Under the pieces are notes generated by a model. It saw only the letters and a list, made by a program, of their open reading frames with translations. It made no database searches and had not been told where the DNA came from. 43,036 nucleotides of DNA from a virus (Duplodnaviria > Heunggongvirae > Uroviricota > Caudoviricetes), in IMG/VR virus record IMGVR_UViG_2671180804_000003, positions 1-43,036 of that record; one strand, 5' to 3'. Below are positions 18,189 through 33,067 of this stretch, piece by piece. Within the stretch, counting starts at the first letter, position 1. Each line of letters opens with the position of its first letter. The translations under genes and the position numbers were made by a program.

Positions 18189-20318
18189 TTATTTCGGCAG
18201 GAGTTGCGATATTCGCTTACGTTTGACCGGCGCTGGTTCTTCAATAACCGCACCCGGCAGCTCGTAATTGATTTTTTCTTCCTGTCCAACTGGCGCTGGC
18301 AGGAACTTATCCGGATCGGCTTCGAGGTTGGCGGCCCGGACGTTGAGTTTTAACCCCATATGTTTGAGACCGCACAGCGCGGCATAGCTGTAAACGAGGC
18401 AGTCAAGCGCTTCGTTAGCTCGTCCTGGTATTGCTTCCCAGATACTGTACCGCTGCCCGGAAATGACTTTGTAAACCAGTCGCTCCGCCAGCAGCTGATT
18501 GAAGTACCCGAGATCGCGATCGTCAGGAAAATGCATATAACCCGCAGCGGCGGCGCCAGGTTTGGGTGGCTCAAGATGCAGGCGACCGCGTATCACGTCT
18601 TTCGCTGAGTTAACCCCCAGAATGACAGGGCGGAAACTGGCTTTGCTTTTCGATGATGGTCGTTTGGTCGGCCAGACAGGATTGCGTTTACCTCCCTGTG
18701 CAGACTCCCCCTTAATTGCCCAGACACGACGGCCAAGACGCTCTTTGGCGAATTCGTATACCTTCTGCGTATGGTGGCCACCGGAGTCCATGCACGTTGC
18801 CATGATATTCAGGCCGCGCCCGTCACCACGTCGCCAGATCTGTTTCAGGTATGCATCCAGTCGCTTCCAGGGTTCTTCCGTCTCAAGGTCACCATAAATA
18901 ACGTCATGCGCGACCGACCACGATTCTTCATCTCTCCCCCAGCCGGTGATCGTAATTTCGAAGCGATCGTCCTGGGTATCAACTCCAGCTGTTAACAATG
19001 CCACCCCGTCCGGAACGACGGCCGGAAATATTTCCCGGCGCGCCAGCAGAACATCAACAGGGAGCTGTTTCCCATGATTAGGTCGGTGCGGAAGCCCCAT
19101 CTGGGTATTCCACCACGCCTGTTCCTTATCCGGATCGCCCTTCGCATCGATATATTTTTTCGCAATATCCGACGGCTTATCTTTTTGCCAGGGGCTGAAA
19201 AGCTTGGATGCCTGGTACCCCGCGTGGTGGTTATCGACTGCCTCCTTTCCACAGGAGGGGCAGATTGCGCGATAGACCGCATGCCGTTCCGACTCTGACC
19301 ATTGCCAGACCTTTTCAACGCTGCCCTCGTCTGCCGCCCGCCAGGCAAGGTCATAATCCATCAGCGGTGAGTGCCGCTCCCCGCAGCACTCAAATGGGCG
19401 CGTCTGATGCCATCGAATAGTTTGCAGAGCTCTGAGGCGCTGTCCTTCGGACCAGCCACTACCACAGCATTCGCAATAGAGCATCGCCGATTTAGTCAGG
19501 TGTTTATCTCCCTCTTTCGGCCACTGAACGTGTTTGAAAAAGTCGGGGAACTGGCGGTGGCCACAGTGCGGGCAAACCACAGATGCCCGGCGCTGATCGG
19601 AGTCGGCGTAGCTGTCAGCAATGCGGCTCTCATCCTCCACCGTCGGCGAACAGGCGCGTACAGACAGCCAGGTCAGGCCAAATGTCGCTGTACGCTCTTC
19701 GGCCAGCGCAATTGGATCGCCTTCGCGGGTTATCGGGTACTTGTCCACTTCATCCGCCAGCAGGACACGAATCGGACGACGCGCAAGGTTATCAGGGCTA
19801 CCAGCACCCGCCAGCGCCAGAAATCCGCCAGTGAACGCCTTGTAAAGAATGGTTTCTTTCGAGCTTTTCTGTTTCGAATCACCGATGATTTTACGCAGTA
19901 CCGGCGTCACCCTTACCAGCGGGCTAATACGCTCTTTCGAAAACTGTTCAGCGGCTTCTTCTTTCGGCTGCAGCAGCAGTATCGGACAAGGATCGAGGTG
20001 GGCAAAATAGCCAAAAAGGTTTTCCAGCAGTGCTGTCTTCATCAACTGGGTACAGCACATTACAGTGATGATATGAACCCCGGACTCCGTCGCGGCAAGC
20101 ATCGGTCCGCGGGCAATTTCTACCGTCGATGTTTCCCAGTTTCCCGAAGTGCTCCCAGCCTCTTTTGCCAGCTTACGATAGTCATCTGCCCACTGCGGCA
20201 CACTGATACGCGGCGGGGGTGTCCAGCCTTTGCGGACGCTTAATTCAAGACGCTCAATCTTCTGCCGGGTTAAACTCTGGCTCTCCGAGGACTGAGATGT
20301 GTTTGTGGACATGTTCAA
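18189..20318 (-). CDS. Terminase large subunit (lambda gpA-like)
   Basis: 709 aa; ATPase and nuclease regions; follows Nu1-like gene. Confidence 0.9.
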   Translation of the reverse strand: MNMSTNTSQSSESQSLTRQKIERLELSVRKGWTPPPRISVPQWADDYRKLAKEAGSTSGNWETSTVEIARGPMLAATESGVHIITVMCCTQLMKTALLENLFGYFAHLDPCPILLLQPKEEAAEQFSKERISPLVRVTPVLRKIIGDSKQKSSKETILYKAFTGGFLALAGAGSPDNLARRPIRVLLADEVDKYPITREGDPIALAEERTATFGLTWLSVRACSPTVEDESRIADSYADSDQRRASVVCPHCGHRQFPDFFKHVQWPKEGDKHLTKSAMLYCECCGSGWSEGQRLRALQTIRWHQTRPFECCGERHSPLMDYDLAWRAADEGSVEKVWQWSESERHAVYRAICPSCGKEAVDNHHAGYQASKLFSPWQKDKPSDIAKKYIDAKGDPDKEQAWWNTQMGLPHRPNHGKQLPVDVLLARREIFPAVVPDGVALLTAGVDTQDDRFEITITGWGRDEESWSVAHDVIYGDLETEEPWKRLDAYLKQIWRRGDGRGLNIMATCMDSGGHHTQKVYEFAKERLGRRVWAIKGESAQGGKRNPVWPTKRPSSKSKASFRPVILGVNSAKDVIRGRLHLEPPKPGAAAAGYMHFPDDRDLGYFNQLLAERLVYKVISGQRYSIWEAIPGRANEALDCLVYSYAALCGLKHMGLKLNVRAANLEADPDKFLPAPVGQEEKINYELPGAVIEEPAPVKRKRISQLLPK

Positions 20319-20823
20319 TCAGCACCTCTGTCATCCTGTCCGCCGGTACATCCAGATCAGCAGCCATTAGCGGCGCCACCCTGGACGGCCAGTTAAGCCA
20401 GGCATCACGCTGTTGGCGAAAGGCGTTGAATAAAACCTCCTCGGCTGCTGTCAGCTCAATAAGCTGGCCGCTGTATTTTTCATACTGCAGCTTTGCCTGC
20501 AGGGCCATGTAATTCTCGCGGATACGTCCCGCTTCCTCTCTCGAAAGATCTGCCCCTTCAGTGAGCATTATCTGGCGGACAGTTTTATTGATTTCATCAC
20601 CGTCATCATCGTTATCGCTAACGACGGGAGTTTTCTTTTTCTTCGCGTTCGAGGCGCGCGGGTCTTTGCCATCGCGGTTTTTCTTCAATGCCGCATCGCT
20701 GGCCTCTACGTCAATCAGGTCTCCGTCCATCACAATGAAGCGCCCGGCTTTAATCCACCGACCAATTGTTTTGCGATCCACACCTGAATGTTGTGCGTAC
20801 TGACTCTGGTTCATCGTGGTCAT
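20254..20823 (-). CDS. Terminase small subunit (Nu1-like, N-terminal HTH)
   Basis: 189 aa; N-terminus MNQSQYAQHSGVDRKTIGRWIKAG resembles Nu1 winged HTH; adjacent to repeat array. Confidence 0.8.
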   Translation of the reverse strand: MTTMNQSQYAQHSGVDRKTIGRWIKAGRFIVMDGDLIDVEASDAALKKNRDGKDPRASNAKKKKTPVVSDNDDDGDEINKTVRQIMLTEGADLSREEAGRIRENYMALQAKLQYEKYSGQLIELTAAEEVLFNAFRQQRDAWLNWPSRVAPLMAADLDVPADRMTEVLIEHVHKHISVLGEPEFNPAED

Positions 20824-20970
20824 GGGACATCACCTGGGACATTTTCTGGGGTGGGACATTCGCCTGGGACATTTTTGCCATGTCCCACCAGAATGTCCCA
20901 CTGGAATAAACTGGAATAGCCAGAGCTGGCGAGGTGTCCGTAATGATCGCCAGAGGTGGGACATGGGACA
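20823..20970. repeat. cosB-like array of TGGGACA(T) repeats upstream of terminase small subunit
   Basis: At least 5 direct copies of TGGGACAT, 2 inverted copies (ATGTCCCA) and one shorter TGGGACA within about 150 bp. Confidence 0.5.
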
Positions 20971-21062
20971 CAAATCTGAAAGTTGTAGCTAGGAAAACAC
21001 CGCGGCGCGCAATGCCCGTGCCTTACAAAAGGCTCAGGAAGGACCCAAAACCCCTGGGGGGG

Positions 21063-21716
21063 CTATCTGGCCGAGCTGATCGCCTCAGCAATCGCCTGGT
21101 GCAGCGCTGAGGGTAACAATGCGTTGGCCATGGTGTTTGCCCTGTCCATATAGCCGAGCGTTGGTTTGACTGGAAGCGCGTCTCCAAACCGAATAAGCAA
21201 TTTTGGTGCAGGTTGCTTAATCTTGTCTCTGCGCGTGCCGTTCGGAGAACGTTTTGCCCGTTTCTTCCCTTTTTTGGTTTTCGGCTTTTTTCTCTGCCAC
21301 ACGGCATTCACGCCACCAACGTCACCAATAAATACGTTTGGCTTTGCTTTGAGCTGAGAGAGCTTATTACGCGGCAGGTTGCCGTATTTATTAAGCTTTA
21401 TGTCTTTCGGGTTAAGCAAAGCACCACCATTAAGCTTGTGCGCTCCGCCGAACTCGAAGGGTTCAAGGTAGCCAGCAGCAGTATCACGAACAAACACCTT
21501 CGCACGAAGGCTGTTTTTCCTGGCACCAACTGACCCTACCGATTTAACTGTAAAAGGTGTTGGATTATCCAGATTCTGCTCAAATGCTGTTTTTTGGGCC
21601 GCTTCTATCTGGCGAACCACTTTAGTCATAGCCTGGGCAGTCGCAAACGGTATTTGCTTCTGCAGCTGTCTTAACTGACTGGAAAGGTCCTTAAGCGTTG
21701 CCATATCATTGACCAC
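21063..21716 (-). CDS. Hypothetical protein (basic C-terminal half)
   Basis: 217 aa ORF between lysis cassette and cos region; no family recognised. Confidence 0.4.
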   Translation of the reverse strand: MVNDMATLKDLSSQLRQLQKQIPFATAQAMTKVVRQIEAAQKTAFEQNLDNPTPFTVKSVGSVGARKNSLRAKVFVRDTAAGYLEPFEFGGAHKLNGGALLNPKDIKLNKYGNLPRNKLSQLKAKPNVFIGDVGGVNAVWQRKKPKTKKGKKRAKRSPNGTRRDKIKQPAPKLLIRFGDALPVKPTLGYMDRANTMANALLPSALHQAIAEAISSAR

Positions 21717-21759: not shown

Positions 21760-21783
21760 TAAAAAACCGCCCGTAGGCGGTTA
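21760..21783 (-). terminator. Rho-independent terminator (CCGCC-cgta-GGCGG plus T-run on minus strand)
   Basis: Forward AAAAAACCGCCCGTAGGCGGTT overlapping the stop codon of the upstream minus-strand gene. Confidence 0.5.
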
Positions 21784-30889: not shown

Positions 30890-32216
30890 TGACGGCCCCC
30901 TGCATGCTGTTGAAGAGACCACCAGCGGTCGTGATAATTTCACTCGTCGGCATACGTTCGAGCCACAGCTGGTTGATATTGGCTTTCAGCTTGTTCTGCT
31001 GCGAAACAGGTAGAGCGTCAGCCCCTTCAATCTGGTTAAACACCAGTCCAACCTCAAGAGGCCAAACGCGCGATTCGTTTAACGCCTTGTCCTTTGATTC
31101 CTGCGTCTCACGGACATGGGCGCGGATCCCCCGAATATTTGACCATTTGGCTTTATCCAGGCTTTCCATGGTCGCGATGAATTCACTGTGGTTAATGCCG
31201 TATTCTTTCGCAGACTCAACGGCAACCGTGCGTAACCGCTCTGACATGTCTTGTTTCACGTCATCGCTATCAAAGGGCAATGTTTCCAGCCATGCATTAA
31301 CACCCACCAGGATGCTCTCGCTGATCAGCTTTTTCGCTCTGTCGATCGTCAGCGGTGAAACATTGGTAAATTCAGGGTTTTCCAGAGAGTCGGCAGCCCA
31401 GGTATGACCAAACTTTGACTCGCTGAAGGTGTACTCGTCTTTCTTGCCGAACGCCGCGACAACACAGGCCCAAGCCTCTACACCGCTGGTTTCCAGAATG
31501 GCTTTTTGGGTTAATGGCAGTTCTGCCTCTGATTTCTCCGGCACTACCTCAGCGTCCAGCTCCGGCGCCGCATCAGTTTGCGTTCTTCCCACGGCAAATT
31601 GGGCCAGCGACATCGCAGCACGGCCTTTGGCCTCCAGGTCGGTGCGGTTGATGTAACTGAAACGCTCACCCCGCCATGTTTTGTCGAAGACCACGATAGC
31701 GCCAGCAAAAAATGCGCTGGTGGGCTGCTGCTTTTCGTCTTTCGGCACGAACCATGTAGGAAGATCGAAACCAATTCGGCCACGGATGAATGTGACGTGA
31801 TCTGCCTCTACCGGCCACCACGTTTCACTCGTCGCAGACTTAATGAGAAAAACGTACCGACCACCCTTTTCTCGCATGGCCATAGCGTGGTTAATGATGT
31901 GGGTCATTCCGGTAACGGCCTGCTTGTCGTGGTACTGAGAGCGGCTGTAAGGCGGGTTGCCAAACCCGGCACCACCGAGTTCTGCCAGCCGCTCTGACCA
32001 ATCCTGCGTCAGGGCATTATCTTCAGCCGTGTACCATGCTGGGCACTTCGCGTTGCTGTCGTCGGCAAAAAGGTCCAACACCAGAGGGCCGAACATCGCA
32101 TTGATCCCCCAAAACAACAGATCCGGAGTGCGCCATTGATCACCGACCTCTTTCAACTCGTGTGCTGGTTTTGAACGGAGTTCAGCCAGTGCACGGCAGT
32201 ATTTATTTTCCATCAT
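30882..32216 (-). CDS. Phage Dam-type N6-adenine methyltransferase with about 250-aa C-terminal extension of unknown function
   Basis: N-terminal W.TP..LF and GFGNPPYS motif typical of phage Dam family; C-terminal half unassigned. Confidence 0.65.
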   Translation of the reverse strand: MMENKYCRALAELRSKPAHELKEVGDQWRTPDLLFWGINAMFGPLVLDLFADDSNAKCPAWYTAEDNALTQDWSERLAELGGAGFGNPPYSRSQYHDKQAVTGMTHIINHAMAMREKGGRYVFLIKSATSETWWPVEADHVTFIRGRIGFDLPTWFVPKDEKQQPTSAFFAGAIVVFDKTWRGERFSYINRTDLEAKGRAAMSLAQFAVGRTQTDAAPELDAEVVPEKSEAELPLTQKAILETSGVEAWACVVAAFGKKDEYTFSESKFGHTWAADSLENPEFTNVSPLTIDRAKKLISESILVGVNAWLETLPFDSDDVKQDMSERLRTVAVESAKEYGINHSEFIATMESLDKAKWSNIRGIRAHVRETQESKDKALNESRVWPLEVGLVFNQIEGADALPVSQQNKLKANINQLWLERMPTSEIITTAGGLFNSMQGAVNA

Positions 32217-33067
32217 CCTCTGAACCCCTCTGGAATCTTGCTATCAACCGGACCGAACTTCATCGGGTCATGTTTCTTTTCACCCCAGCTGTCACGCGGT
32301 GGCCGCCCCTTCTTGTCCCAGCGGATCCCGCTTTGCAGATAACCTTCAAATTTTTTCGGACCGAAGAGCGTTTCAGGACGCATGTACTGGTACTGCACGT
32401 CATTGCCGTTCCAGTGCTCATGCTTAAGGTCGATCACCAGCTGTAAGTCGCTAACGGTGTAACCTTCACGCAGACGAGCACGGATGTTTTCCAGAGAAGT
32501 TTTTGATTTTTGGTATCGTGAGCCACTAACCAGGTTCAGATGATTCAGAACCAGGATGGCGTTATCGGTGATCATCACTTCAGGGTCTGGTTGCGGCGCA
32601 ACCGGACAAGAAGGTTTTTTAACTGATGGATCAGTAGTTGTATTTACTGACGGATCCCCCCCAGATTCTGACGGGTGAAAACCGCCTTTTTCATCGTTTT
32701 TTGATGCCTCAGATTTTGACGCGTCGGTTTTTGAGGCATCAGATTTTGATGCGTCAGAATCTGACAGGTGAGAAAAGGCAGCAGCCTGCAATTTCGCAAC
32801 ATTGAGCTGGTAAACGTTCGATGCATTTCGGTTGCCTTTACGGCGCTGCTGGCGGGTTAACCAACCATCTTTTTCCAGCTGAGATATGGCTGTACGAACC
32901 GTGCTCTCACCAGCACCAATCTGGCGCGCGATGGTAGCGATGGAAGGCCAGCTAACCCCTTCATCACTGCTGAAGTCTGCCAGACGCGCCATGATGGCAA
33001 CGCTGGATAACTTCATGCCTGACGAAGCGCATGCATCCCATACGTAACCGGTTAATTTAGTGCTCAT
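32213..33067 (-). CDS. Replication initiation protein (N-terminal HTH, O-like organisation)
   Basis: N-terminal HTH (WPSIATIARQIGAGESTVR); central SDASK repeats encoded by tandem DNA repeats; C-terminal conserved phage region. Confidence 0.55.
   Translation of the reverse strand: MSTKLTGYVWDACASSGMKLSSVAIMARLADFSSDEGVSWPSIATIARQIGAGESTVRTAISQLEKDGWLTRQQRRKGNRNASNVYQLNVAKLQAAAFSHLSDSDASKSDASKTDASKSEASKNDEKGGFHPSESGGDPSVNTTTDPSVKKPSCPVAPQPDPEVMITDNAILVLNHLNLVSGSRYQKSKTSLENIRARLREGYTVSDLQLVIDLKHEHWNGNDVQYQYMRPETLFGPKKFEGYLQSGIRWDKKGRPPRDSWGEKKHDPMKFGPVDSKIPEGFRG
32661..32770. repeat. Tandem 15/30-bp repeats inside replication gene (iteron-like, candidate ori)
   Basis: TTGATGCCTCAGATTTTGACGCGTCGG / TTGAGGCATCAGATTTTGATGCGTCAG with flanking partial copies. 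Confidence 0.45.

Follow-up and report, generated by a model that had tools for sequence, protein, structure and literature searches.

Does a short non-coding gap crowded with copies of one heptamer mark the point at which a prophage genome is cut for packaging, and if so, does the phage carry a packaging specificity of its own? The question is raised by the 240-bp gap at 20823-21062 of a 43,036-nt virus record (IMGVR_UViG_2671180804_000003; this whole stretch is hereafter the window), in which an array of TGGGACA repeats lies between a 217-aa ORF and the terS gene. Lambda-type cos sites, TerS-specific R sites and the distinction between complex and simple cosBs are established (PMC4669245), and the cohesive end of the family concerned has already been published for Serratia phage vB_SspM_BZS1 (BZS1), in a paper that leaves the cosB of that phage undescribed (PMC7556043). 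What is new is the cosB specificity based on TGTCCCA (the repeat as read along terS), and none of the isolated phages of the collection was found to carry a cosB of this type.

The prophage and its terminase

The window represents a prophage of E. coli; over a test stretch it shows 99.9% identity to prophages of ABWA45, AW1.7 and other strains. A complete window-type cos, which ABWA45 and AW1.7 carry as well, was present in 47 of 5426 complete E. coli genomes, strain HS included. Among isolated phages, no close DNA match to the window was found, and a distant DNA search matched only the cosQ-cosN part of Citrobacter phage phiNP. The nearest isolated phages by TerS and TerL are BZS1 and phiNP, with identities to the window of ~48% (TerL) and ~30% (TerS).

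All genes around the array lie on the minus strand. In order of transcription they are the DNA methylase, holin, lysozyme and Rz genes, a DUF2513 gene, the 217-aa ORF and, past the 240-bp gap, the 189-aa terS, a gpA-type terL, gpW, portal, S49 protease, decoration and major capsid genes and those of a contractile tail. The element that hosts the array is a lambdoid prophage whose head is of the lambda type and whose tail is contractile. TerL (18189..20318, minus strand) is a gpA-type large terminase with ATPase and endonuclease parts (Pfam GpA_ATPase PF05876, 2e-64; GpA_nuclease PF20454, 2e-78). On the other side of the gap, the 217-aa ORF (21063-21716, minus strand) matched PHROG 1924 ‘minor tail protein’ and nothing in Pfam or NCBIfam; its stop, at 21063, stands 16 nt before cosQ in the window. 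Homologues with 64-88% identity, among them BZS1 p72 and phiNP_029, lie upstream of cos in most of the related loci examined, whichever the cosB class.

Two further features of this prophage group were observed. A terminator-like hairpin (AACCGCC-TACG-GGCGGTT followed by a T run; 21765-21782, minus strand) is located between the DUF2513 gene and the 217-aa ORF, within the expected late operon. The early region of the ABWA45 prophage (L001, 28163-32262), which is otherwise nearly identical, holds five tandem copies of a two-gene unit (WP_000939115 plus WP_157698506); the tandem-repeat scan of the window covered periods up to 500 bp, which is below the size of this unit.

The gene beside the array had been taken for a small terminase in the first-pass annotation, and its product (terS, 20254..20823, minus strand; 189 aa) indeed matched PHROG 57 ‘terminase small subunit’ (E = 5e-35). 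The protein has a predicted N-terminal wHTH (~residues 4-51), whose recognition helix spans ~residues 16-26 (DRKTIGRWIKA), followed by a linker of low complexity and a helical C-terminal part. Searches against Pfam, NCBIfam and PDB sequences returned nothing significant, and no Nu1 match appeared in the PDB sequence search (matches to RecA in that search were spurious, arising from six-fold fusion chains). Nearly all of the 120 closest listed homologues are unnamed or ‘hypothetical’, a single UniRef entry being called ‘Terminase small subunit’, and none has a Pfam domain; in RefSeq the family is annotated as ‘hypothetical protein’. Because of these labels and of the missing Pfam and NCBIfam models, terminase-based phage annotation misses this TerS family.

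Structure modeling predicted the N-domain to be a wHTH. The AF2 model (36 sequences; mean pLDDT 66, ~75-78 in the N-domain) placed there a strand, helix 6-13, helix 17-25, a beta wing and helix 39-51. Foldseek returned no significant match for the TerS model (E 0.15-1.4); the best local matches were MerR-like wHTH proteins, namely Pukovnik Xis (4j2n) and BldC (6ama/6amk), and the DNA-binding domain of lambda gpNu1 (1j9i) was matched with a probability of 0.96 and an rmsd of 2.6 A over 54 columns, at a weak E of 0.65. Another match, 6hn7, is a TerS N-domain chain from a study of PICI redirection of helper-phage packaging. In a plausible register, hhalign (E = 0.0065) paired residues 4-60 of TerS with 3-60 of Nu1, so that W23 falls on Nu1 W22 and K25 on Nu1 Glu24, a residue implicated in the discrimination between lambda and 21 (PMC4669245). 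The class-specific differences of TerS (D16, I20-R22 and the extra residue I24) fall in the recognition helix.

Anatomy of the gap

Within the window, TGGGACA occurs 12 times on the two strands, compared with 4.86 +/- 2.22 expected, and none of 100 shuffles reached 12. Eight of the 12 heptamers are located within 148 bp (20823-20970), where about 0.017 would be expected for a stretch of that size. At least five direct copies, two inverted copies and one shorter copy had been reported upstream of the terS start from the letters alone, and all were recovered: five 8-mers TGGGACAT on the plus strand at 20823, 20835, 20852, 20865 and 20957, the shorter copy as TGGGACAc on the plus strand at 20964, and the inverted ones (ATGTCCCA on the plus strand) at 20880-20887 and 20893-20900. 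Read along terS, the boxes have the consensus ATGTCCCA, and their flanks are not conserved. A single T, at 20823, begins one box on the plus strand and is paired with the A of the terS ATG on the minus strand.

Numbered from the first base of the cohesive end (21015 = bp 1), the boxes form three blocks. A proximal tandem pair, TGTCCCA-TGTCCCA (20957..20970, minus strand; bp 46-59), whose members abut and start at bp 46 and 53, is the equivalent of R3. It is separated by a 56-bp spacer (20901..20956, minus strand; bp 60-115), in the position of lambda I1, from two inverted boxes (20880..20900, plus strand; bp 116-136; starts at bp 116 and 129), the equivalent of R2. The third, R1-like block (20823..20872, minus strand; bp 144-193) holds four direct ATGTCCCA boxes at 20865-20872, 20852-20859, 20835-20842 and 20823-20830, which start at about bp 145, 158, 175 and 187; the ribosome-binding site of terS, AGGTGA (20830-20835), falls within this block, as does the first base of the start codon (ATG, bp 193-195).

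The proposal that the array is placed like lambda cosB was supported, with the first boxes at bp 46-59 and the direct, inverted, direct order corresponding to R3-R2-R1. Since the positions and orientations of the boxes and the start of terS (ATG at bp 193, compared with bp 191 for lambda Nu1) all agree, the array reproduces the lambda layout almost base for base, though its recognition elements are different and greater in number. Published work places R3 of N15 at bp 48-59 and names base pairs 56, 58 and 59 as the critical ones of R3 in lambda and 21; it also reports that function depends critically on how far R3 stands from cosN, and that R2 of complex cosBs is opposite in orientation to R3 and R1 (PMC4669245).

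In the spacer, two direct TATTCCAG repeats (20901-20908 and 20911-20918, 10 bp apart) stand just before the inverted boxes. These repeats and a GATC (Dam site) are kept in nearly all TGTCCCA-type variants, while the remaining spacer drifts; they may represent degenerate boxes or be bound by some other factor. The IHF consensus WATCAANNNNTTR was searched with up to one mismatch and was found neither in the cosB of the window, the 56-bp spacer included, nor in close variants; therefore no I1 site is claimed, and an IHF site is not universal in the lambda-type cos group, as N15 illustrates (PMC4669245). A 7-bp inverted repeat in the spacer (CTGGCGA...TCGCCAG) was dropped as it is not conserved in the variants, and Rfam, tRNA and tandem-repeat scans of the cos region gave no match.

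A nicking site had been suspected in the GC-rich stretch of the gap, and precisely there lies the exact 12-nt cohesive end mapped from BZS1 virion DNA. The predicted 12-nt 5' cohesive end, GCATTGCGCGCC (cosN core; 21004..21015, minus strand), equals the annotated cosL of BZS1 and occurs once in the window, at the homologous position. The BZS1 end was obtained with PhageTerm on virion reads and with PCR across the prophage cos, and for this 12-mer the BZS1 paper was the single relevant one found in the literature (PMC7556043). In ~90 related loci the 12-mer carries 0-2 mismatches.

Upstream of cosN, a cosQ-like heptamer GGGTCCT (21040..21046, minus strand), extended as GGGTCCTTCC to 21037, starts 31 nt before base 1 of the cohesive end. 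The identical heptamer of lambda starts 30 nt before base 1, as part of the GGGTCCTTTCC that the lambda right end carries from that position. In lambda, cosQ is required for the terminating cut. Almost all related loci have GGGTCCTT 31 nt before the cohesive-end 12-mer. The cosN flanks are also lambda-like, with ACGG before the end and (C)GCGGTGTTTTCC after it (lambda, CGCGGGTTTTCG), and their alignment suggests a 1-nt offset between the BZS1-derived register and that of lambda. Compared with the lambda cohesive end GGGCGGCGACCT, GCATTGCGCGCC agrees at five of 12 bases in register and at six of 12 with a 2-nt shift; it does not show the significant identity to GGGCGGCGACCT by which lambda-like phages sensu Feiss are recognized. 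Between cosN and the first boxes, a conserved linker (20971..21003, minus strand; bp 13-45, ...CTAGCTACAACTTTCAGATTTG) aligns with bp 13-45 of lambda, and its CTAGCTA...TTT(T)GAAATTT is common to all box classes.

Box classes and the TerS N-domain in related loci

Related loci were collected in two ways: a TerS alignment run against one genome per species yielded 44 loci, and an IMG/VR scan for GGGCATTGCGCGCC yielded further loci, 56 of them with cosQ in place. Nearly all of these loci conserve cosQ, the 12-mer and the linker at bp 13-45, and the classes diverge from ~bp 45. The first boxes stand at bp 44-62 in every class, at the same position beside the same cosN.

Each box class comes with its own version of the TerS HTH. 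TGTCCCA is paired with YAxHxxV[D/N]RKT[I/V]xRW[I/V/M]K, GGTAACA with FAxLxxVSRKTVTxWKARGW, GGTAACG with VSKKTVTxWK, GTTCGCAC with SDTLVR[K/R]A, GTCCGCAC with CDEKQVRRA and GTTTCA with VSHTAVSKWHKAG, while TTCCTTCC was found with one lambda-Nu1-like protein. GGTAACA loci with a long cosB share the architecture of the window: the spacer separates a tandem pair from two inverted boxes, after which three or four direct boxes precede the ATG. The first-pass annotation had supposed, from the difference between the repeats and lambda R sites, that this phage probably has its own packaging specificity. The comparison of sequences bears this out, as the boxes differ among relatives whose cosQ and cosN are the same, and each kind of box comes with a TerS recognition helix of its own.

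A 2x2 mosaic of loci separated the components. The Edwardsiella locus L014 has 89% identity to the window in TerL and 82% in TerS residues 90-189, but only 50% in TerS residues 4-45, and its boxes are GGTAACA. Conversely, in L076, L115 and L159, TerL is 47% and the TerS C-terminus 25-27% identical to the window, while the N-domain is 67% identical and the boxes are TGTCCCA. In E. coli Ec1117 (L171, 915-1142), the stretch between cosQ and bp 45 is near-identical to that of the window, and GGTAACA boxes and the matching N-domain follow. Across these sequences, the box class follows the TerS N-domain with its recognition helix, and not TerL, the TerS C-terminus or the upstream gene. Since TerL, the TerS C-terminus and the 217-aa gene do not track with the boxes, the TerS N-domain is the sole component that changes with them. 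The covariation of boxes and N-domain is partly linkage, because the two are adjacent DNA and a single recombination event moves both. Separately, the Ec1117-type sister specificity, with a 2+2+4-like layout and a recombination boundary at bp 45, was seen in some E. coli genomes.

Variation among the boxes themselves was restricted. Across 15 distinct TGTCCCA-type cosB variants, only five of 56 columns in the boxes are variable, compared with 63 of 129 elsewhere (Fisher p = 6e-8), a distribution which indicates purifying selection on the boxes.

A second architecture was found in BZS1-type relatives (BZS1 itself, L003, 217-303, and about 30 related loci, e.g., L018, L032 and L035), where part of the array is intragenic. 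In these ‘short’ loci the start of terS is at bp 75, a single inverted box is found at ~bp 217 in the codons for RKTVTR, and 4-6 direct GGTAACA boxes with a spacing of 12-15 bp (mostly 12) follow within terS at ~bp 245-310. Translated, the direct boxes yield Gly-Asn-x-x repeats in the linker of TerS. Every one of the 144 linker Gly-Asn pairs in 30 distinct genes is encoded as GGTAAC, followed in 143 by A. Selection on the protein cannot explain such uniformity, which therefore points to selection at the DNA level; as judged from this codon choice, it is the DNA signal that dictates the peptide repeat in BZS1-type terS.

Elsewhere in the window, four copies of a 15-bp repeat (TTTTGATGCGTCAGA-like; 32694-32758) were observed inside a replication-initiator-like ORF (33067..32213, minus strand), where they encode DASKS-type peptide repeats. 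They resemble the iterons of an origin that lies within the initiator gene, the arrangement of lambda O, and share with the terS boxes of the relatives the principle of a site inside a linker.

Function of the array and comparison with known systems

The anatomy of the site, its conservation, the covariation of box and recognition helix, and the identity of the 12-mer with a mapped cohesive end are established by comparison of sequences. On these grounds the gap at 20823-21062 is very probably a lambda-type cos site, in which the boxes form a cosB read by the TerS wHTH and make up, together with the TerS N-domain, an exchangeable specificity cassette.

By analogy with the lambda system, we infer that the TerS wHTH binds the boxes and that the DNA of the window prophage is cut at this cosN. 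TerS seated on the proximal pair would anchor the gpA-type TerL, which would then nick cosN twice, at points 12 bp apart. The inverted and distal boxes would allow a TerS oligomer to fold or wrap the 56-bp spacer, and the folded or wrapped cosB could stabilize the post-cleavage complex on the left DNA end, which would go on to dock on the portal; cosQ would serve the terminating cut. Box sequence and TerS N-domain would jointly act as an exchangeable cassette that decides which DNA the terminase packages. A more specific version, which we consider unlikely, takes the eight boxes as a template with one wHTH per box for the eight TerS subunits of a [TerS2:TerL1]4 assembly, ~150 bp being wrapped without IHF, and the cassette as freely exchangeable. 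If this template reading were true, the cassette would even be written into the terS frame in some relatives, and the family would offer a natural TerS-DNA recognition code.

Other functions of the boxes have to be weighed against a cosB. The boxes, at least the six distal ones, might be an operator for terS or the late operon, bound by TerS or by another regulator. The last two boxes do cover the ribosome-binding site and the start codon of terS, and the closest fold neighbors of the N-domain include transcription regulators and excisionases (BldC, Xis), but the scan of the coding strand of the gap found no sigma-70-like promoter or terminator, and the distance from the proximal pair to cosN is fixed in all classes. 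Moreover, the distal block of the BZS1-like relatives, which consists of one inverted and 4-6 direct boxes, is found 140-230 bp inside terS, a location from which it cannot gate initiation and which argues against a pure operator role. An operator in place of a cosB is thus a quite improbable reading, and the boxes may have a secondary autoregulatory role.

It is very improbable that a host factor or a different phage protein is the binder of the boxes and that TerS recognizes something else. Adjacency alone could make the boxes and the TerS N-domain travel together, as such a reading would have it; yet only the HTH recognition helix changes with the boxes, TerL and the TerS C-terminus do not track with them, and a host factor fails to explain at least six box classes in Enterobacterales, two of them in E. 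coli. The product of the 217-aa gene was considered as the box binder and rejected, as this gene does not covary with box class and is 64-88% identical whatever the boxes. The mapped ends of BZS1 bear on the remaining possibility, namely that the array is a pac-type headful site or a decayed relic in a dead prophage: this relative has defined 12-nt cohesive ends with the very sequence found in the window, and TerL is gpA-type, although some pac phages such as SPP1 also have multiple TerS boxes around the cut site (PMC4669245). A relic would hardly keep all eight boxes across genera while its spacers drift, nor be found as a full cos in 47 of 5426 complete E. coli genomes. Both forms of this last explanation are scarcely credible.

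With the array read as a cosB, the genome ends and the packaging signal are pinned for a prophage group that is present in ~1% of complete E. coli genomes and in many other Enterobacterales. The family provides at least six natural pairs of a 7-8-bp box and a recognition helix on a constant cosQ and cosN, with two specificities in E. coli. Such natural pairs make TerS-DNA recognition, and packaging exclusion between co-resident prophages, directly testable, and the cos cassettes could serve orthogonal cosmid or transduction systems.

Compared with lambda cos, the window shares the subsite order cosQ-cosN-cosB, the identical cosQ GGGTCCT, a 12-nt 5' overhang, similar cosN flanks, a first TerS site at ~bp 46-59, the direct/inverted/direct order and a gpA-type large terminase. 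The differences are in the recognition element, which is ATGTCCCA and not the lambda R sequence; in the number of sites, eight 8-bp boxes (2+2+4) as opposed to three R sites; in the cohesive end, of which 5-6 of 12 bases are shared; and in the lack of an IHF consensus in the window. TerS itself is 23% identical to lambda gpNu1 and misses every Pfam model, Phage_Nu1 included.

At the level of fold, the best neighbors of the TerS N-domain are the MerR-like wHTH proteins BldC and Xis, and a weak NCBIfam match to BldC was also obtained. BldC and Xis proteins bind runs of direct repeats cooperatively, and binding of this style is a plausible model, by analogy, for the four direct boxes. Unlike TerS, these proteins are regulators or recombination directionality factors and not terminase subunits, and the likeness is one of fold only, with weak statistics.

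The isolated phages BZS1 and phiNP agree with the window in the cohesive end GCATTGCGCGCC, cosQ, the cosN-proximal linker, the position of the tandem box pair, the TerS and TerL families and the 217-aa gene upstream of cos; they differ in that their boxes are GGTAACA, terS starts at bp 75, and the distal boxes lie in the gene and encode Gly-Asn repeats. N15 and Monarch form a precedent for such a difference, as the simple cosB of N15, with an rR2 inside the TerS gene, and the complex cosB of Monarch share one specificity (PMC4669245). Their recognition sequences are unrelated to those described here, and the intragenic site of N15 is single copy. Like N15 and Monarch, the family of the window has two architectures for one specificity: one in which all boxes stand upstream of terS, as in the window, and one in which the proximal boxes stand upstream while the inverted and distal boxes are inside terS, in the manner of rR2.
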